Below are positions 29,936-37,459 of a DNA stretch of 64,000 bases, in pieces. A program made the position numbers and the translations under genes. Source of the stretch: Thermoplasmata archaeon (GTDB taxonomy: Archaea; Thermoplasmatota; Thermoplasmata; Lutacidiplasmatales; UBA184); assembly GCA_027315455.1 (NCBI GenBank), contig DAHUXZ010000004.1:9009-73008 (forward strand), given 5' to 3'. Within the stretch, counting starts at the first letter, position 1. Each line of letters opens with the position of its first letter. Below the pieces are notes generated by a model. The model ran no database searches, was not told the origin of the DNA, and saw nothing but the letters and a program-made list of their open reading frames with translations.

Positions 29936-30535
29936 TTGAGGCGGGCCCTCGCGAAGGTCCATCTGCGCGTCGCGGCGGTCGATGACGGGGCGTTCACCCG
30001 CCGCCACCGCAGCGCCCCCATCGCGGCGGTCATCGTCTCGGTGCCGGGGACGATCGAGGCGGTCCTCCTCGACCGGGTCGAGGTCGACGGGAACGACGCC
30101 ACGGATCGCATCGCGCACCTCCTGAAGGGCTCCGACCACCTCGAGGGGGTCCGCGCGGTGCTGCTCGACGGGGTCGTCGTCGGTGGCTTCAACGTCATCG
30201 ACCTCCCCGCGCTCGCCCGGCGCCTTAACCGTCCGCTCGTCGCCGTCACCCGGCGGCGGCCGGACCTTCCCCGCCTCCGGGCGGCGATCGGGAAGTACTT
30301 CCCGCAGGATGCGGCGCGACGGTGGCGCCGGCTCACCGCCCGACCGCTGTTCCGGGTGCCGACCGCCGGGGCCCCGATCTACGCCGCGTGCGTCGGCTGC
30401 ACCCGGGCCGAGGCGATCGAGCTCGTGCGCCGCACGACGGTCCGCGGCTTTTGGCCGGAGCCGCTCAAGGTCGCGCATCTCATCGCGAGCGCCGCCGGGA
30501 CCCCGGGCGCCCGACGCGTACGGACGAACGCTTAA
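29936..30535 (+). CDS. DUF99/UPF0215 family protein (endonuclease-V-like fold)
   Basis: AAVDDGAF..., VDGNDATD, LLDGVVVGGFNVIDL and PEPLKVAHLIASA blocks are typical of archaeal UPF0215. A non-ATG (TTG) start is inferred. Confidence 0.75.
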   Translation: MRRALAKVHLRVAAVDDGAFTRRHRSAPIAAVIVSVPGTIEAVLLDRVEVDGNDATDRIAHLLKGSDHLEGVRAVLLDGVVVGGFNVIDLPALARRLNRPLVAVTRRRPDLPRLRAAIGKYFPQDAARRWRRLTARPLFRVPTAGAPIYAACVGCTRAEAIELVRRTTVRGFWPEPLKVAHLIASAAGTPGARRVRTNA

Positions 30536-30560
30536 GGGGGCGGCCGGGGATGTGGAGGCC

Positions 30561-30668
30561 GGGCCTGTAGCTTAGCTTGGACAAAGTACTGGCCTTCTAA
30601 GCCAGCAATCTCGGGTTCAAACGCCGCCGGGGGACGGACCCTCGCGGGGGAGACTCCCGACAGGCCCG
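30561..30668 (+). tRNA. tRNA-Arg (anticodon UCU) interrupted by a 33-nt insertion in the T-loop
   Basis: Manual cloverleaf:
- Acceptor GGGCCTG/CAGGCCC.
- D-arm GCTT-AGCTTGGACA-AAGT.
- Anticodon arm CTGGC-CTTCTAA-GCCAG.
- Variable loop CAATC.
- T-stem TCGGG/CCCGA, all paired.
The T-loop TTCAAA is separated from T+CCCGA by 33 nt. No CCA is encoded. Confidence 0.85.
30622..30654 (+). other. Putative non-canonical tRNA intron (T-loop, position about 59/60)
   Basis: Sequence CGCCGCCGGGGGACGGACCCTCGCGGGGGAGAC. Removing it restores the 7-nt T-loop TTCAAAT. It contains an internal hairpin (GGGGG-ACGGA-CCCTC). Confidence 0.7.
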
Positions 30669-30669
30669 T

Positions 30670-31746
30670 CTACGCCGGTCCGGCCCCTGCGCTCCCTTGG
30701 ACCTCCGCGTCGCAGCGGGCGCACACGATCCCCTTCCAGTTCGGGGGGAGGGCGTCGCCGCAGAGCGGGCAGGTGGCGCGGGCGTCGGCCGCCGCGATGA
30801 GCTCGAGGACGCTCGTCCGCAACTGGGGGTTCGGCAGCGGGGGAAGGGCGTCGTCCCGCGGCGCCGGCACGAGGGGAAGGACCGGGTCGAAGCGCGGGCG
30901 GTAGATCCCCGTCCGCCGGTCGAGGGTCGCGAGCCCCCGGGCGGCCAGCGCGTCGAGCGCCGAGGCCGCCAGCTCGCGGACCCCCCCGAGGACCTGGCCG
31001 AGCTCGAGCGGGCTTATCCCGTGCGTCTCGCTCAGCACCTCGAGCGCACGGGCGGTGATCGGGGAGAGCTCGCCCCGGGCGACGAGGCTGTCGAGGGCGT
31101 AGGCGAGGCGCGGGGGCCGCCGGACGCGGCGGGACAGGGCGAGGCGGCCGGCGCGCCGGTCCCTCAGGAGGTGGCCGCTGACCAGGTCGAGGTCGTAGCG
31201 CAGCCGGTCGTCGGAGCGGTAGACGAGCAGGGTCGTCGAGAGCGGGACGATCCCCGTCGTCCGGACCAGCTCGGCGACCTCGGGGAGCGTGAGCAGGCGG
31301 TCGATGCGGCCCCGCGCGGCGGCGACCGGGTCGCCGGCCTCCTCCTCGACGCGGGAGCGGGGCACGTACAGCTCCCGGAGGGCGAAGCGGCCGATCGCCC
31401 GGCGGGCCGGGGCCGATCCGAGGGGGGTGATGTCGGCGCTCCCGTCGGCGTTGAGCTCGATCGACCGGAACGGCACGAGCCAGTCCCACGCGCTCCCGTC
31501 GGGCGGGGGCGCGGCGAGGAAGATCTTCCCCCGGTCGAACGGCGCCGAGTCGTCGCCGAGGGCGTCGAAGACGGACCAGACCGGACGCCCGCCGAACTCG
31601 AGCGAGAGCTCGGCGAGCGGCGGCGGACGATGGGCGAGGTACTCCTGGACCGTCCGCCCGAGCGCGGACTCGGAGTAGGCGTCGTGGCTGGCCGGGCTGC
31701 GCCGCCGCGCGAAGGCGTTGAGCTCATCGAGCGACGCGCCGGGCAC
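30670..31746 (-). CDS. Hypothetical protein with central wHTH-like segment and C-terminal zinc ribbon
   Basis: 358-aa ORF overlapping the upstream GT4 gene by 23 nt (coupled). C-terminus CPLCGDALPPNWKGIVCARC. I recognise no family for the N-terminal ~200 aa. Confidence 0.6.
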   Translation of the reverse strand: MPGASLDELNAFARRRSPASHDAYSESALGRTVQEYLAHRPPPLAELSLEFGGRPVWSVFDALGDDSAPFDRGKIFLAAPPPDGSAWDWLVPFRSIELNADGSADITPLGSAPARRAIGRFALRELYVPRSRVEEEAGDPVAAARGRIDRLLTLPEVAELVRTTGIVPLSTTLLVYRSDDRLRYDLDLVSGHLLRDRRAGRLALSRRVRRPPRLAYALDSLVARGELSPITARALEVLSETHGISPLELGQVLGGVRELAASALDALAARGLATLDRRTGIYRPRFDPVLPLVPAPRDDALPPLPNPQLRTSVLELIAAADARATCPLCGDALPPNWKGIVCARCDAEVQGSAGAGPA

Positions 31747-32929
31747 CTTGAGCTCGCTCCCCCAAGAGCAACTCGTAGAGAGAGATAAACCGTCGGGCGG
31801 TCGCGTCGATCGAGGCGGTGCGGCCCACGTAGCGTCGCGCCGCCTCGCCGAGCCGCCGGCGCCCGTCCGGGTCGGTCAAGAGGCCGGCGATCGCCGACGC
31901 GAGGCCGGCGGAAGACCGCGGGTCGACGACGCGACCGGTCGTCCCGTCCTCGACGATGTCCGCGGGCCCGCCGACGCTCGACACGACGCACGCGGCGCCG
32001 GCCGCCATCGCCTCGAGCAGCGCGACGGAGGAGGTGTCCGAGGTCGACGGAAGGACGAAGACCGAGGTCTGGGCGAGGAGCGCCGGCTTCTCCTCCTCGG
32101 CGACGGGTCCCAGGTAGCGGACCCGGCGCGCGAGCACCGCCTCGTCGCGCAGGCGCGCGCGGACCCGGTCGGCCTCGGGGCCGCTGCCGGCGACGACCGC
32201 CCGGAACGGCGGGTCCCCGGGGATCGCCGCGACGGCGTCCAGGAAGCGGTGGACGCCCTTGTCCACCGTCAGGCGGCCGAGGTAGGTGACGAGCGGGGCG
32301 TCGGGGAGCCCGCAGCGCTCCCTCCAGTCGGGGACCGAGATCCCCGGGCGGAAGCGGTCGACCTCGATGCCGTTCGGGACGACCTCCACGGCCCGCCGGA
32401 ACGGCTTGCCGGCGCTCCCGAGGAGGGCGCGCCGGGCGGCGTCGGTCGGGGCGGTCGTGATATCGCACCTCCAGTAGGTGCCGAGGGTGTACCACCGGGC
32501 GGCCGCGAAGAACAACCCGACGAGCGGGTTCGCCGGGAAGCTCGAGCGCATCTCCCAGACGTTCGTGTGGAACGTGCCCACGAGGGGCTTGCCGTAACGG
32601 CGGGCGGACAAGAAGCCGGCGCTCCCCATCATCCCCGGGGTGTGGACGTGGACGACATCCACCCCGGCCAGGTGCTCGCCGCGGAGCCGAAGGAACGGGA
32701 ACAGGGCCCAGCGGTACTCGGCGTAGAGCGGGACCGGGAGCGAGCGCACGCGGACGACGGGGATCCCGTCGACCACGTCCCGGCGGCTCGGCGCGCCGAC
32801 GGTGGGATGCGTCGTGAAGACGCGGACCCCATGGCCGAGGCGCACGAGCGCGCGGGCGAGATCGCTCACCTCGACGGCGACGCCATCGCGGGTGGGGGGG
32901 AAGGTCTCCGTGAAGAACGCGATCTCCAT
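31724..32929 (-). CDS. Family 4 glycosyltransferase (GT-B, GT4)
   Basis: MEIAFFTETFPPTRDGVAVEV N-terminus and the C-terminal EX7E-type region (PSTSDTSSVALLEAMAAGAACV). Confidence 0.85.
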   Translation of the reverse strand: MEIAFFTETFPPTRDGVAVEVSDLARALVRLGHGVRVFTTHPTVGAPSRRDVVDGIPVVRVRSLPVPLYAEYRWALFPFLRLRGEHLAGVDVVHVHTPGMMGSAGFLSARRYGKPLVGTFHTNVWEMRSSFPANPLVGLFFAAARWYTLGTYWRCDITTAPTDAARRALLGSAGKPFRRAVEVVPNGIEVDRFRPGISVPDWRERCGLPDAPLVTYLGRLTVDKGVHRFLDAVAAIPGDPPFRAVVAGSGPEADRVRARLRDEAVLARRVRYLGPVAEEEKPALLAQTSVFVLPSTSDTSSVALLEAMAAGAACVVSSVGGPADIVEDGTTGRVVDPRSSAGLASAIAGLLTDPDGRRRLGEAARRYVGRTASIDATARRFISLYELLLGERAQGARRVAR

Positions 32930-32944
32930 CGGTGCGGCCCGCCG

Positions 32945-33718
32945 TCAGAGTAGGTTGGTGAAGGAACGCTGGAGCAGGCTCAACGTCCGGTCCTCGACGC
33001 CCTTCGGGTCGACGGAGAGGACCACCGTCGACCCCGTCGCCTGCGCCGTCTGGGTCGCCCAGGCGACGAACCGCAGCATCGGGTCGACGCCGTGCTCCGT
33101 CGCCATGATCTCGAAGACGTCGAGGTAGACGAGGGCGCCGCCGGGTCCCTCCATCGCGGCGCGCAGACGGCCCGAGAGGTCCGTCGGCGAGGTCGGGCCG
33201 GTCGCGCCGGGGCCGACCCGCAGGACGGTGAGACGCCCCGGGTCGATGCCCGGAAGCGCGGGGGGCCGGAAGCTCGCGACCAGGAGACGGGGGTAGGCGG
33301 CCCCGTTCGCCTCGACGAACGCGACGGCGCGCAGGGGGCGCTCCTCCCGGAAGAGATAGCTCTCCCCGGGGGAGAGGACGGGGACGACCCGCTCCCCGGG
33401 GGCGGGACGCGCGGCCGCGGGGACGAGGGGGGCCGGAGCCGGGGGCCGGAAAAGGGCGCTCCAGCTCGGCTGGCGGGGGGGACCGGTGAGGCTGCGGCGC
33501 TTGAGCTCGACGTCGTCCCGGAGGCGGGCGAGCCGGCTCTCGATGAGCATCCGGAGCTCCTGGACGGTGTGGCCGCGCGCGGCGTGCCCGAGGACCTCGC
33601 GCAGCGCCTCCCGTAGGCCTTCGCCGTACCCGTCCGCGTACGCCCGGGCGAACTCATCGTCGGCCCCGGGGTCGGGCCGGCGGGGGCCGTTCCCGTTCGA
33701 CGGGGACGGGCCGCTCAC
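32945..33718 (-). CDS. DUF835 domain-containing protein
   Basis: The C-terminal ~140 aa (SPGESYLFREERP...VYLDVFEIMATEHGVDPMLRFVAWATQTAQATGSTVVLSVDPKGVE) resemble the archaeal DUF835 pattern. The call rests on my recollection of the family. Confidence 0.5.
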   Translation of the reverse strand: MSGPSPSNGNGPRRPDPGADDEFARAYADGYGEGLREALREVLGHAARGHTVQELRMLIESRLARLRDDVELKRRSLTGPPRQPSWSALFRPPAPAPLVPAAARPAPGERVVPVLSPGESYLFREERPLRAVAFVEANGAAYPRLLVASFRPPALPGIDPGRLTVLRVGPGATGPTSPTDLSGRLRAAMEGPGGALVYLDVFEIMATEHGVDPMLRFVAWATQTAQATGSTVVLSVDPKGVEDRTLSLLQRSFTNLL

Positions 33719-34206
33719 GCCCGCGCGGCCCCGGCCCCGGGACCCGGGGCTACCGGGGCCGTCCCGCGGGGCCCGCGGGGCGCCGGGGCCGCGCCGCCGC
33801 TGTCCGCCGGGGCGAACTTGTAGCCGTAGTGGATGACGCCGGCCCGGCCGTCCTCGCGCAGCTTGCGGAAGGTGGCCCGTACCTTGAGGCCGATCCGGAC
33901 CGTGTGCGGGTCGACGTCGACGACCTGACCGGTGAGCGTCGGGCCTTCGCGGGTCCGCACGAGGGCGACCACGTACGGGACCTGCATCTCGAAGCCCTCG
34001 GCGGCGTCGTGGACGACGGAATAGGTGATGACCTCGCCCTCACCCGAAAGCTGGAACGGCTCGAGCTTGCCGATCGACTGGCGGTGCGTCGAGCAGGTCG
34101 GGCAGACCGACCGGGGCGGGAAGTACACCGTCCGGCAGTTCGTGCAGCGCGACCCGCCGAGGTTGTAGCGTCGGGGCGTCTCTCTCCAGAATCGTGCGAT
34201 CGCCAT
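33715..34206 (-). CDS. DUF35 OB-fold/zinc-ribbon protein (scaffold of the archaeal thiolase/HMGCS complex)
   Basis: CTNCRTVYFPPRSVCPTC ribbon plus an OB fold. It sits immediately downstream of the thiolase and HMG-CoA synthase genes. Confidence 0.85.
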   Translation of the reverse strand: MAIARFWRETPRRYNLGGSRCTNCRTVYFPPRSVCPTCSTHRQSIGKLEPFQLSGEGEVITYSVVHDAAEGFEMQVPYVVALVRTREGPTLTGQVVDVDPHTVRIGLKVRATFRKLREDGRAGVIHYGYKFAPADSGGAAPAPRGPRGTAPVAPGPGAGAARA

Positions 34207-34219
34207 GACACTCCTCCGT

Positions 34220-35389
34220 TCAGTTGACCCTCTCGAGCAGGTGGACGACGCTCGTCGCCCCCGTGCCTCCCACGTCGTGGAGGAGGCCGAGGTTCGTCGC
34301 GGGGGCCTGCCGTTCCTTCGCCTCGCCCCTCAGCTGGCGGACGACCTCGACGGCCTGGGCGACGCCCACGGCCCCGAACGGGCAGCCCTGCGCCTTGAGC
34401 CCACCGGACGGGTTGACGGTGAGCTTCTGGCCCAGGGCGAACTGGCCCGCGGCGAACGCGGGTCCGCTCTGGCCCTTCGGCACGAAGCCGAGGTCCTCGA
34501 GCGCGAGCAGCGCCGAGATCGTGAAGCCATCGTGGACCTCGGCGACCCCGACGTCCTCCGGCGCCCGCCGCGCCTGGGCGAACGCCCGCTTCGCGGCGAC
34601 GACCGTCGAATCGATCGTCGTGAGGTCCCGGCGATGATGGAGCGCCATCGTATCGCAGGCGACCTGGCTGGCCACGATGCGGATGGGGGTATCGGTGAAC
34701 TTGCGCGCCCGCTCGAGCGGGCCGAGGACGACCGCGGCCGCCCCGTCGGAGAGCGGGGCGCAGTCGAGCATCCCGAGCGGTTCCGCGACCGGCGTCGCCC
34801 GGAGGACCTGGTCGAGCGTGAGGCGGTTGCGGTAGTGGGCGTTCGGGTTCTTCGCCCCCATCTCGTGCGCCTGGACGGCGACGCTCGCGAGCGCCTCGCG
34901 GGTGGTGCCGTAGTCGTGCATGTGGCGACGGGCCATCATCGCCCAGAGGGCGGGCAGGGTCGCCCCGAAGACCTCCTCCCACTCGTGGTCCGCCGTCGAA
35001 TTGATGATGCGGTTCGCCTCGGTGTCGGCGACATCGGTGAGCTTCTCCGCCCCGCCGACGACGACGAAGTCGTGCGCCCCGCTCGCCACGGCGAGGTATC
35101 CCTGGTGGAGGGCGAGCGCCCCGGAGGCGCCGCCGCCCTCGATCCGGACCGCCTCGAGGTGGTGGCCGGCGAGGCCGGCGTAGTCGAGGATGAGGGGCGC
35201 GATGTGCTCCTGGTCGATCAGCGAGCCGCTGGCCATGTTGCCCATGTAGAGCGCGCCGAGGTCCCCGCTCGAGAGCTTCGCGTCGACGAGCGCCTGGAAG
35301 CCGGCTTCGATCCCGATCTCCCGGAACGACCGGTCCCAGAGCTCGCCGAACCGCGTCATCCCGGCGCCGAGGATCGCGACCTCGCGCAT
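34220..35389 (-). CDS. Archaeal-type acetoacetyl-CoA thiolase
   Basis: SCP-x-like thiolase fold. C-terminal block GGLKAQGCPFGAVGVAQAVEVVRQLRGEA. Confidence 0.9.
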   Translation of the reverse strand: MREVAILGAGMTRFGELWDRSFREIGIEAGFQALVDAKLSSGDLGALYMGNMASGSLIDQEHIAPLILDYAGLAGHHLEAVRIEGGGASGALALHQGYLAVASGAHDFVVVGGAEKLTDVADTEANRIINSTADHEWEEVFGATLPALWAMMARRHMHDYGTTREALASVAVQAHEMGAKNPNAHYRNRLTLDQVLRATPVAEPLGMLDCAPLSDGAAAVVLGPLERARKFTDTPIRIVASQVACDTMALHHRRDLTTIDSTVVAAKRAFAQARRAPEDVGVAEVHDGFTISALLALEDLGFVPKGQSGPAFAAGQFALGQKLTVNPSGGLKAQGCPFGAVGVAQAVEVVRQLRGEAKERQAPATNLGLLHDVGGTGATSVVHLLERVN

Positions 35390-35391
35390 CG

Positions 35392-36444
35392 TTACGTCCC
35401 CCCCATGTGGATCTTCCCGCGGTACTTCGCGTACGTCGCGTAGTTCAGCTCGATGCCCTGGTCGAGATACTCCTGGACCGGAAGACCGTAGCTCCGGTCG
35501 AACCGGGCGATCTCGTCCGTCGTCTCGATGTCGAACGCGTCCGAGCCGGCGCCGCTCCCGTAGCCGACGACGAGGATCCGCTGGCCGGGGGCGGCGCGGT
35601 CGAGGACGTTCGCGAGGCCGAGGAGGGCGGCCCCGGAGTAGGTGTTGCCGATGTAGGGGGTGACGAGGCCGTAGCGCATCTGCTCGTCGGTGAACCCGAG
35701 CTGCTTACCGATGCGCTGGGGGAACTTCCCGTTCGGCTGGTGGAAGACGACGTGGGCGTAGTCGCGCGGCGTCGTGCCGACCTCCTCCATGATGCGCCGG
35801 GCGCACTCGCCGACGTGGCGGAAGTAGGCCGGCTCGCCGGTGAAGCGGCCGCCATGGCTCGGGTAGCGCTGGCCCTCGCGGCGCCAGAAGTCGGGCGTGT
35901 CGGTCGTGTAGGAGAGGGTGCGGTGCACCTGCGCGATCACCCGTTCCCTCCCGATGACGAGCGCCGCGCCGCCCGCGCTCGCGCTGTACTCGAGCGCGTC
36001 TCCCGGGGCGCCCTGCGACGTGTCGGAGCCGATGGCGACCCCGTAGCGGATCATCCCCGAGGCGACGAGGCCGAGGCACGTCTGGATCGCCGCCGTCCCC
36101 GCCTTGCAGGCGAACTCGAAGTCGGCCGCCGTCAGGTTCGGGGTCGCCCCCACGGCCTGCGCCACCACGGAGGCCGTCGGCTTGACCGCGTAGGGGTGGG
36201 ACTCGCTCCCCACGTAGATCGCCCCGAGCTCCTGCGGGTCGATGGCCCCGCGGAGGAGCGCCGTCCGCAGCGCCTCGGTGCTGATCGTGATCGTGTCCTC
36301 GTCCGGCGCCGGCACGCTCTTGCGGTGGACGTTCAGGCCCTGGCCCATCGCCGTCCCGTCGGTCCCCCAGACCTTCCCGATCTCCTCCGGCGTGATCCGG
36401 TAGCGCGGCACGTAGGCGCCGTAACTCACGATCCCTGCGTCCAT
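35392..36444 (-). CDS. Hydroxymethylglutaryl-CoA synthase (archaeal)
   Basis: Conserved blocks [20 protein letters not shown] and HQPNGKFP. First gene of the HMGCS-thiolase-DUF35 trio. Confidence 0.9.
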
Positions 36445-36466
36445 GGCTGCTTCACTCCCCCTTCGC

Positions 36467-37144
36467 CTAGAGCTCCTCGAGGCGCTCGAGCACCTCGGCG
36501 GCGCCGTACGGCGTGGTCAGGAGAGGGATGTTCTCGACCTCACTGAGCCGGACCGCGAGCGGGTCGACGCGGCCGGGGTTAGAGAGGACGACGGCCGCCG
36601 GCTTGAGCGGGTGGGCGCGGATCGCCACCATCGGGGAGCGGCCGTACTTGACGTTGGCGAAGATCAGCGCCCGCTGGGTCGTCCAGCCGTACATCTCCAC
36701 GAAGTGGGAGGCGTCGATCGACAGGATCGCCCGGGGGGCATCGACCAGGGTAAACCCATGGATGTCCCGGTGAAGGTCGACGCGGCTCGCCATCTTCGCC
36801 TCGAGGGCGTCGGCGAGGGATTTGAGCGGCACCGCGACGGAGAACTCGCGCATCCCCAGGATCCCCTCGGAGTGCGGGCGCCGCCCGAGCCGCGCCGACA
36901 CCTTCCCGCCGCTCTGCTGGTCGAGCGCGAGGAGGGCGTGGACGTACTTCCGGATGAAGCCGGCACCGGGACTCGCCCGGCGCTCCGCCTCGTAGTCGCT
37001 GACGACCGACGGGACGGTCGAGAGGGACCGGGCCAGGTCCCGCTGCGAGACCCCGAAGTCCTCGCGCCACTTGCGAAGGGTGCGTCCCGGGTGGGCCGAG
37101 AGGACGACCTCCCCGGCGATCTTCTCCTCGATGGTGGTGTCCAC
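36467..37144 (-). CDS. Archaeal HTH (XRE-type) transcriptional regulator, COG1395-like
   Basis: [37 protein letters not shown]...[14 protein letters not shown]. The GTG at 37144 lies 25-30 nt downstream of TTTATA (leaderless spacing). An in-frame ATG at 37189 is the alternative start. Confidence 0.7.
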
Positions 37145-37168
37145 GGGTCCCTCGGAGGAGGGGTGCGG

Positions 37169-37174
37169 TATAAA
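37169..37174 (-). promoter_or_regulatory. TATA box (TTTATA on the minus strand) for the COG1395-like regulator
   Basis: AT island 25-30 nt upstream of the GTG at 37144. Confidence 0.45.
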
Positions 37175-37247
37175 GCGGTGCCTCCGCATGTCGTCCGGGG
37201 GGTTCGACACCGGACGAACTCGCCCGCGATCCGGGCGAGCGGAGGAG

Positions 37248-37354
37248 TGGACCGGGCGAGAGTTTCCGGCGCGGGGGGAGGTCCCCCGCGTCCGTTTGAA
37301 CTCGCGGCCTCTACCTTGCCAAGGTAGCGATCTTCCGGACTGATCTACCGGCCC
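37248..37354 (-). tRNA. tRNA-Ala (anticodon GGC) interrupted by a 33-nt insertion in the T-loop
   Basis: Manual cloverleaf on the minus strand:
- Acceptor GGGCCGG/CCGGTCC, with the G3:U70 Ala identity pair and A73.
- D-arm GATC-AGTCCGGAA-GATC.
- Anticodon arm CTACC-TTGGCAA-GGTAG.
- T-stem GCGAG/CTCGC.
The T-loop TTCAAA is separated from T+CTCGC by 33 nt. Confidence 0.85.
37262..37294 (-). other. Putative non-canonical tRNA intron (T-loop, position about 59/60)
   Basis: Minus-strand sequence CGGACGCGGGGGACCTCCCCCCGCGCCGGAAAC. It has the same length and position as the tRNA-Arg insert and a 7-bp internal hairpin GCGGGGG/CCCCCGC. Confidence 0.7.
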
Positions 37355-37459
37355 ACGCCGACTCGGCGACGCGGCTCGACACATAACCGTTGTCACCCGT
37401 CCGAGCCGGCGCTCCGGCCCCCGACGAGGGTTTGAACGCGGCCGGGCCTGAGGGGCGGC

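Follow-up and report, generated by a model that had tools for sequence, protein, structure and literature searches.

Two tRNA genes in a 64,000-nucleotide (nt) stretch of the genome of a Thermoplasmata archaeon (contig DAHUXZ010000004.1, positions 9,009 to 73,008; hereafter the window) each carry a 33-nt insert within the T-loop, which raises the question of what these inserts are and why they resemble each other. A preliminary description, made from the letters of the window alone, had seen in them a family of mobile introns. We favor a different reading, to which we assign a probability of about 0.82: the inserts are bulge-helix-bulge (BHB) introns at tRNA position 59/60, each inherited vertically with its tRNA, and their likeness comes from shared constraints rather than from recent copying.

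The inserts and the junctions that they form

The interrupted genes are those for tRNA-Arg(UCU), at 30561-30668 on the forward strand (5' exon 30561-30621, 3' exon 30655-30668, discriminator G), and tRNA-Ala(GGC), at 37354-37248 on the reverse strand (5' exon 37354-37295, 3' exon 37261-37248, discriminator A). Each insert was found once in the window, at 30622-30654 (+) and 37262-37294 (-), and both lie 3' of the T-loop sequence TTCAAA, at tRNA position 59/60, and are followed by T and the complement of the T-stem. These coordinates and flanks agree with the preliminary description, which had placed inserts of 33 nt each at the same T-loop site of the two genes. Because the inserts are present, the genes escape standard tools: ARAGORN calls no tRNA in the raw window (neither of these two genes), and Rfam returns only partial tRNA matches of 33.8 and 23.4 bits, which extend over 30564-30631 for tRNA-Arg and, weakly, over 37297-37354 for tRNA-Ala. 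After in-silico excision of the inserts, ARAGORN reported perfect 75-nt cloverleaves for both tRNAs, with a G3:U70 pair in tRNA-Ala, and excision also resulted in canonical tRNAs for 8 tRNA types in relatives.

A BHB motif consists of two 3-nt bulges with 4 bp between them (PMC4033280), and the junctions of the two inserts share an arrangement of this kind. The T-stem serves as the outer helix, T-loop bases U54, U55 and C56 pair with R at N-2, R at N-3 and G at N-4 of the intron, respectively (N being the last intron base), and base 57 lies opposite N-5, such that the central helix is made up of T-loop U54-U55-C56-(R57) and an intron 3' segment of the form (G/C/U)-G-R-R. The first bulge comprises A58, A59 and intron base 1 (i1), the second comprises the final two intron bases and U60, and a GC-rich intron hairpin begins right at the bulges, with base 2 paired to N-6. 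In the pre-tRNA-Arg, the unit of T-arm and intron spans 30611-30660 (+), where T-stem bases 30611-30615 pair with 30656-30660, T54-A57 (30616-30619) pairs with 30652-30649, and the 5' bulge of A58, A59 and i1 occupies 30620-30622. The intron starts with C (30622) and continues with an imperfect GC hairpin (h', 30623-30648), the exon-binding segment H' (GGAG, 30649-30652) and the bulge bases A and C (30653-30654) that precede U60 (30655). In tRNA-Ala, on the reverse strand, the initial C (37294) is followed by a hairpin with an 8-bp GC stem, the exon-binding segment H' (GGAA, 37267-37264) and the bulge bases A and C (37263-37262) before U60 (37261). As the preliminary description had noted, a hairpin occupies matching positions of both inserts, in which bases 8-12 and 18-22 form a 5-bp G/C stem, and the folds also bear out that one stem pair differs as G-U versus G-C. 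The fold of the tRNA-Ala T-arm and intron scored z = -4.93 against shuffles.

The BHB geometry was found in 43 of 44 Arg and Ala orthologues and in all other hosts of such introns, which are described below. Among the 44 Arg/Ala junctions, 88% of the cells were paired and covariation reached 0.434, compared with 0.186 in shuffled sets; among 26 junctions from 9 hosts, the corresponding values were 84% and 0.516, compared with 0.195. None of the 500 shuffles reached the observed score in either set. Sliding the register by one position in either direction lowered pairing in the Arg/Ala set to 47-63%. Whereas U54 and U55 lie opposite A or G interchangeably, C56 always lies opposite G. Position 57 shows A opposite G in most junctions, A-U in the tRNA-Ala of the related locus L026, and G-C in 5 of 5 tRNA-Gln junctions, and these variants fix the register of the central helix. 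A register shifted by one (4-3-4) was considered and rejected, as tRNA-Gln (CGRR) and the L026 tRNA-Ala (UGAA) pair only in the 3-4-3 arrangement. Because excision restores the cloverleaves and the junctions form a BHB supported by covariation, we conclude that both inserts are presumably spliced introns of the archaeal endonuclease type at 59/60, genuine and structurally conserved as far as sequence comparison can tell. EndA would cut in both bulges, and ligation of the exons by an RtcB-type enzyme would give TTCAAAT again.

Two other identities for the inserts were weighed. Group I or group II self-splicing introns were rejected, as the inserts are simple hairpins of 28-35 nt versus a ribozyme core of at least 200 nt, and an Rfam scan of the window gave no match to an intron family. 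That the inserts are retained, either as expansions of the T-loop in the mature RNA or within pseudogenes, would explain why ARAGORN does not call the unspliced genes and why the Rfam matches are only partial, but we consider it hardly credible. Strong purifying selection acts on the exons in about 25 species, the compensatory changes keep precisely the BHB register, and a 33-nt insert would destroy the interaction between the T-loop and the D-loop. In addition, tRNA-Ala(GGC) would read GCC, which is the major Ala codon of a genome with 72.5% GC, and AT-rich, TATA-like boxes lie upstream of both genes. The boxes, which are putative promoters, read gcTTAAgg at 30530-30537 (+), ~27 nt upstream of tRNA-Arg in a background of 72.5% GC, and ggTTATgt at 37381-37388 (-), ~27-34 nt upstream of tRNA-Ala.

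Inheritance of the introns and their range of hosts

We compared both precursors with related loci from about 25 related species using BLAST, which recovered syntenic orthologues of tRNA-Arg at 18 loci and of tRNA-Ala at 24 loci, each with an insert at exactly the same point. Gene order is kept, in that nucS is followed by tRNA-Arg, even in L026, and tRNA-Ala lies upstream of the HMGCS, thiolase and DUF35 genes. The exons of these orthologues are 92-100% identical, and the introns, which are 28-35 nt long, show mean identities of 68.5% for Arg and 63.7% for Ala. Because the same site is filled in the orthologues while the introns have diverged and their structure has been kept, each intron appears to be old and vertically inherited with its tRNA across the sampled clade, its sequence evolving fast and its helices being kept by compensatory change. 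The preliminary description had argued for gain by copying and "not vertical inheritance with the tRNA", which, for the observable past, cannot be reconciled with near-invariant exons that carry diverged introns at one site in all of these relatives.

A difference in presence was seen in one case only. The syntenic tRNA-Arg(UCU) of L026 (18551-18625, -), directly downstream of nucS, has no intron (T-loop TTCGAAT, T-stem TGGGG/CCCCA), in contrast to 18 of 18 crown orthologues; the L026 tRNA-Ala does contain one. The tree places L026 as the sister of the remaining sampled members, with a support of 100/100 for the whole clade and a bootstrap of 99/100 for the crown that excludes L026. Either a gain of the Arg intron on the crown stem or its loss in L026 would account for the difference, the two being equally parsimonious without the outgroup state. 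A separate event affects the same gene in locus L093 (6330-7580, -), where an insertion of ~1.15 kb divides the intron-bearing tRNA-Arg(UCU) into two parts, with the break at about nt 46 to nt 50. The insertion codes for a fragment of an IS630/Tc1-mariner-like transposase (...NPDEWVW...) and apparently lies at a TA in the variable loop.

A covariance model (CM) of the T-arm and intron, R1, scored 56.1 bits for the tRNA-Ala unit (37256-37305) and 51.6 bits for the tRNA-Arg unit. R1 found no third copy in the 64-kb window, where the next match scored 14.5 bits, and no member in 53 outgroup loci of Thermoplasmata and Methanomassiliicoccales, which together with 5 other loci make up the 820 kb searched. 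Public metagenome contigs were scanned with the host-neutral pattern GTTCAAAGG-N19-26-CGGRRANTC, which gave at least 120 matches; among the matches listed, the T-stem is perfect in 23, of which 21 belong to tRNA genes. All 21 lie on contigs of 63-73% GC, whereas chance matches average 53% GC, and true members score 44-63 bits with R1, compared with at most 33 bits for chance pattern matches. A dispersed repeat such as a miniature inverted-repeat transposable element (MITE) was rejected, since both the CM and the pattern searches place the unit only in tRNA T-loops and the window holds no other copy.

The hosts of 59/60 introns number at least nine. Seven of them, tRNA-Met(CAU), tRNA-Ser(CGA), tRNA-Ser(GCU), tRNA-Leu(UAA), tRNA-His(GUG), tRNA-Arg(UCU) and tRNA-Ala(GGC), were identified by ARAGORN after in-silico splicing, and tRNA-Leu(UAG) was recognized by eye. 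The ninth, tRNA-Gln(CUG), lies ~175 nt upstream of tRNA-Leu(UAG), and both of these genes have 59/60 introns (L145, L184, L198 and L202-L210; for example, L202 7772-7490, -). The T-loop of tRNA-Gln(CUG) reads TTCGAA and its intron ends in CGRR, which results in a fully Watson-Crick central helix. Host counts among the matches listed were 5, 4, 4, 3, 2, 1, 1 and 1, from which we extrapolate, very roughly, that a dozen or more hosts fit the pattern in total; tRNA-Asn(GUU) and tRNA-Ala(CGC) on the same contigs are uninterrupted. The tRNA-Leu(UAG) gene also contains a second intron, of 27 nt, which follows nt 24 in the D loop and forms a perfect hBHBh' motif in 4 of 4 orthologues (two-intron loci: L145, L184, L198, L202 and L206; for example, L202 7640-7500, -). 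The Gln/Leu pair adjoins a class I aldolase gene, the named relatives of which are all "Thermoplasmata archaeon", and the pair with its T-loop introns occurs in metagenome-assembled genomes (MAGs) at NCBI, including three of the JAKIW* series to which the AcS5-116 and SubAcS15 MAGs also belong, which ties it to the same order as the window. The preliminary description had assigned the inserts to a class with several host tRNAs and had proposed a search by CM or pattern in relatives; the further members and the nine or more hosts in this high-GC lineage bear this out more strongly than could be seen from the window alone.

Introns of this kind also mislead annotation. ARAGORN mis-called the intron-bearing tRNA-Arg in L003, L004, L006, L013-L015, L017 and L022 as a tRNA of 76-80 nt with the intron as a false T-arm, which indicates that tRNA counts from standard tools are unreliable for such MAGs. 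As finders of this type miss or mis-call intron-bearing tRNAs, MAG completeness that is estimated from tRNAs can come out too low. Two further ARAGORN calls, a "tRNA-Pro(CGG)" at L014 1718-1792 and a "tRNA-Asp" at L146 1155-1231, were set aside as likely false positives within coding sequence, judged from the sequence.

The likeness between the Arg and Ala introns

Aligned without gaps, the two window introns share 22 of 33 positions, one fewer than the 23 of 33 reported previously, and with gaps they share 24 of 34 (70.6%). The preliminary description had proposed a statistical alignment of the pair, the outcome of which depends on the null. The likeness exceeds that of plain shuffles of mononucleotide composition (P = 1e-4 for 22/33), but we dropped this null because it ignores the BHB constraints on the intron ends; with the first 2 and last 6-7 bases held fixed, the likeness is marginal, at P = 0.019 ungapped and P = 0.036-0.054 for the global-alignment score. 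For comparison, 457 pairs of Arg and Ala introns from different genomes show an identity of 61.0 +/- 5.9%, and same-genome pairs show 62.0%. Among all 475 Arg x Ala pairs, which include 18 same-genome pairs, the window pair ranks 24-28.

To place the pair within the class, z-scores were computed with all hosts pooled, against shuffles with the motif ends fixed. Between-host pairs have a mean z of 0.29 (n = 1611; z > 2 in 6.3%), and the between-host pairs from the same genome (Arg/Ala and Gln/Leu) have a mean of 0.32 (n = 21), compared with 1.65 for orthologues within a host (n = 600; z > 2 in 36%). In every host, the hairpin contains 52% G in its 5' arm and 55% C in its 3' arm. The identity of ~70%, from which the preliminary description had deduced that the inserts are paralogues, thus looks like the background for any two members of the class, concentrated in the BHB-constrained ends and in the G-rich and C-rich hairpin arms, and paralogy cannot be shown from it. 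That both inserts measure 33 nt is a coincidence, given orthologues of 28-35 nt. The window Arg intron is 71-74% similar alike to Arg orthologues (L014 and L017, 73%), to the Ala introns found in two genomes and to the Gln intron of a metagenome contig, and at such divergence intron identity appears to carry no phylogenetic information. The match between the window Arg intron and the Gln intron of L145 (25/35, P = 4e-4) was rejected as not significant after 1611 comparisons. The consensus introns of Arg and Ala are the most alike of all host pairs, with 68% in the middle region, a value that is confounded by arm composition and sample size.

These data bear directly on whether the window inserts are recent copies of each other within an active or recently active mobile family, as the preliminary description had suggested. 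Their identity at 22 of 33 positions would fit such copying, as would an 8-nt run (CGGGGGAC) at the same offset in both, which is matched or beaten in 1.9% of the 1611 between-host pairs (maximum, 10 nt). Both window introns also have C as i1, unlike most orthologues. However, both introns are present in diverged form in orthologues throughout the clade, and the window Arg intron is as near to its Arg orthologues (73%) and to the Gln intron (71%) as to the window Ala intron (71%). The absence of another copy from the window, where the next CM score of 14.5 bits falls far from 51.6 and 56.1 bits, and the lack of any elevation in same-genome pairs (mean z of 0.32 versus 0.29) argue in the same direction. 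Gene conversion or recent copying inside one genome was rejected on the latter ground. Because the likeness of the pair is ordinary for the class and same-genome pairs are not elevated, recent mobility is unsupported, and we consider it very improbable.

For the reading that we favor, in which vertically inherited BHB introns are alike through shared constraints, three constraints would be responsible: pairing with the universal T-loop sequence, the place where the hairpin starts, and the G-rich 5' and C-rich 3' arms. Several observations weigh against this reading. With A57, the central helix has three standard pairs and a conserved A-G opposition, which makes the motif near-strict, not strict. 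Minimum-free-energy folding does not give the short central helix, the T-arm of tRNA-Arg in the window folds no better than shuffles (z = -1.14), and of all members the tRNA-Arg intron of the window is the most irregular, its first hairpin pair being a G-G mismatch. Furthermore, the window pair has a z of 1.9, which falls in the upper ~5% of the background, and may retain a weak residual homology. Splicing itself is something that we infer, and a tblastn search with the EndA of M. jannaschii as query found no EndA gene in the 2.05 Mb examined, so the enzyme type is assumed from the literature (PMC5829648).

An older common origin is a different matter from recent copying. A single BHB intron that pairs with UUCR could have been copied early into position 59/60 of many tRNAs, with the copies later diverging until only structure was shared. 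The same site, architecture and length range in at least nine tRNAs of a high-GC lineage fit this proposal, as does the absence of members from the 53 outgroup loci. The intronless tRNA-Arg of L026, next to an intron-bearing tRNA-Ala and outside a crown with 99/100 support, fits a stepwise gain, although one loss explains it equally well. The slight excess of between-host pairs with z > 2 and the closeness of the Arg and Ala consensus introns point the same way, but the consensus convergence is expected from arm composition and the larger sample sizes, and between hosts there is no similarity beyond constraints and composition (mean z of 0.29). In addition, 59/60 is also used in unrelated archaea (ARMAN-2 and Thermoproteales), which suggests that the site itself favors recurrent gain. 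An ancient copying process is therefore a possible, live and unproven explanation, which we hold at somewhat less than an even chance.

The alternative to common descent is that each tRNA gained its intron separately, with convergence imposed by the endonuclease's demand for BHB geometry on the same T-loop sequence. This would account for the lack of detectable homology between hosts and for the recurrence of 59/60 in distant archaea, and the shared positions are all explained by pairing with UUCR, the bulges and the hairpin composition. On the other hand, nine or more de novo gains of a 28-35-nt hairpin at one phosphodiester bond in one lineage are unparsimonious without copying, and the length range is narrow, which leads us to regard separate origins as rather unlikely.

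Pairing of the exon-binding segment with the universal UUCR would make an intron portable to any tRNA. Because the GGRR or CGRR segment pairs with UUCR, the spread of a single cassette would have been possible, in that one such cassette could give a near-strict BHB wherever it landed. We offer tentatively, and with a little less confidence than ancient copying as such, the proposal that BHB introns multiplied in soil Thermoplasmata of the Lutacidiplasmatales type in a lineage-specific and site-specific manner, entering position 59/60 in a large share of the tRNA genes as well as other non-canonical sites; the nine or more isoacceptors come from a small sample. If this proposal is true, the clade would be the first Cluster II euryarchaeal lineage with an intron-rich set of tRNA genes and a presumed strict alpha'2 endonuclease, and strict enzymes would be no bar to the expansion of non-canonical introns. 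The clade also offers a test bed for intron gain, as the site is fixed, the hosts number at least nine, species-level genomes exist by the dozen, and there is an orthologue both with and without the intron.

Known introns, endonucleases and the setting of the window

Position 59/60 is a documented intron site, with strict hBHBh' examples that include ARMAN-2 (PMC3239211), and what is unexpected here is not the kind of intron, which is known, but its lineage and its breadth. Euryarchaeota with alpha4 or alpha'2 endonucleases are reported to have single canonical introns at 37/38 only (PMC4090602, PMC5829648), and the accepted view has non-canonical or multiple tRNA introns tracking broad-specificity enzymes, namely (alpha-beta)2, epsilon2 and loop-bearing alpha4 (PMC4090602, PMC3239211, PMC5829648). 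Cluster II Euryarchaeota, Thermoplasmata included, are described as having exclusively alpha'2 (PMC5829648), an enzyme type that needs strict BHB motifs according to reviews. On this point the preliminary description was right that such introns are not expected here, as the reviews allow Thermoplasmata only the canonical 37/38 type. We found no report of non-canonical tRNA introns in Thermoplasmatota in the literature searched, which does not prove that they are new, and these introns may already be annotated silently by tRNAscan-SE 2.0. All introns that we found are strict or near-strict, which fits a strict enzyme working at non-canonical positions. If the enzyme is an ordinary alpha'2, then it limits the strictness of the motif and not the position of the intron, and the account of coevolution between introns and endonucleases needs refining. 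Against the accepted view, conserved T-loop introns interrupt many tRNAs of a widespread order of soil Thermoplasmata, in which one or more tRNAs have two introns.

The closest parallel in position is ARMAN-2 (Candidatus Micrarchaeum), in which pre-tRNA-Cys(GCA) and pre-tRNA-Pro(GGG) have the same T-loop insertion point and a BHB-type junction, and the 59/60 intron of tRNA-Pro(GGG) has the strict hBHBh' form (PMC3239211). ARMAN-2 belongs to another phylum, however, and has a broad-specificity epsilon2 endonuclease, and its tested 59/60 intron is 13 nt long with a relaxed hBH motif, in contrast to the 28-35 nt, the long GC hairpin and the strict or near-strict 3-4-3 arrangement found here. Canonical archaeal introns at 37/38 share the geometry of a 5-bp stem and a 7-nt loop, with the intron after loop base 6 and two 3-nt bulges; loop bases 1-4 pair with the intron 3' segment, as in the present introns, and the same enzymes are presumed to act. 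The anticodon-intron pair at position 32 provides a further analogy. Those introns lie in the anticodon arm, whereas the present ones lie in the T-arm, and because of this location the exon half of the central helix is the near-universal UUCR instead of a tRNA-specific anticodon-loop sequence.

Two other lineages resemble this one in their abundance of introns. The transposed introns of Thermoproteales (Fujishima et al., 2010; summarized in PMC4090602 and PMC4033280) are defined by very similar introns in unrelated tRNAs. Thermoproteales likewise have non-canonical introns in many tRNAs and have tRNAs with several introns, as in the tRNA-Leu(UAG) described above with its D-loop and T-loop introns. 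They differ in having (alpha-beta)2 endonucleases, many intron positions rather than one dominant site, and, going by the published description, high similarity between introns of different tRNAs. The similarity beyond the splice motif that marks a recently transposed family is at background level in the present lineage (mean between-host z of 0.29). Methanopyrus kandleri is another "euryarchaeal" lineage with non-canonical and multiple tRNA introns (PMC5829648), but its enzyme is of the (alpha-beta)2 type, its D-loop intron has a relaxed HBh' motif, and it is a Cluster I lineage, in contrast to the Thermoplasmata of Cluster II (PMC5829648).

The window has a GC content of 72.5% and encodes an archaeal ribosomal protein L3, an HMG-CoA synthase-like protein and DnaK. 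Its L3 protein is a 100% match to one in contig DAHVBV010000050.1 of GCA_027315875.1. When species-representative genomes were scanned with the HMG-CoA synthase, soil and peat "Thermoplasmata archaeon" MAGs came first, at 79-87% identity, followed by Methanomassiliicoccales and others at 64-70%. The close set includes the MAGs AcS5-116, SubAcS15-25 and SubAcS15-31, which are listed as Lutacidiplasmatales (formerly TMEG; about 69% GC) in a paper that nowhere mentions introns (PMC9287336). The window falls within the Lutacidiplasmatales clade in single-gene and three-protein trees, and we conclude that its source is a high-GC soil member of the Thermoplasmata from that clade. A nucS gene of the Endo_dU family lies at 29936-30535 (+), with its end 25 nt before tRNA-Arg.

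Rfam also gave weak, sub-threshold matches in the window to the Pyrobaculum H/ACA sRNA PyrR209 (900-959, -; 27.7 bits, E = 0.4) and to the C/D box sR45 (34274-34331, +; 21.9 bits, E = 1.4), both of which are probably due to chance. Finally, the loci L052 and L057, which are titled Dialister hominis and Bacteroides ovatus, contain archaeal HMG-CoA synthases that are 66-67% identical to that of the window and are nested among Methanomethylophilaceae in the tree; these loci are probably mis-binned archaeal contigs.

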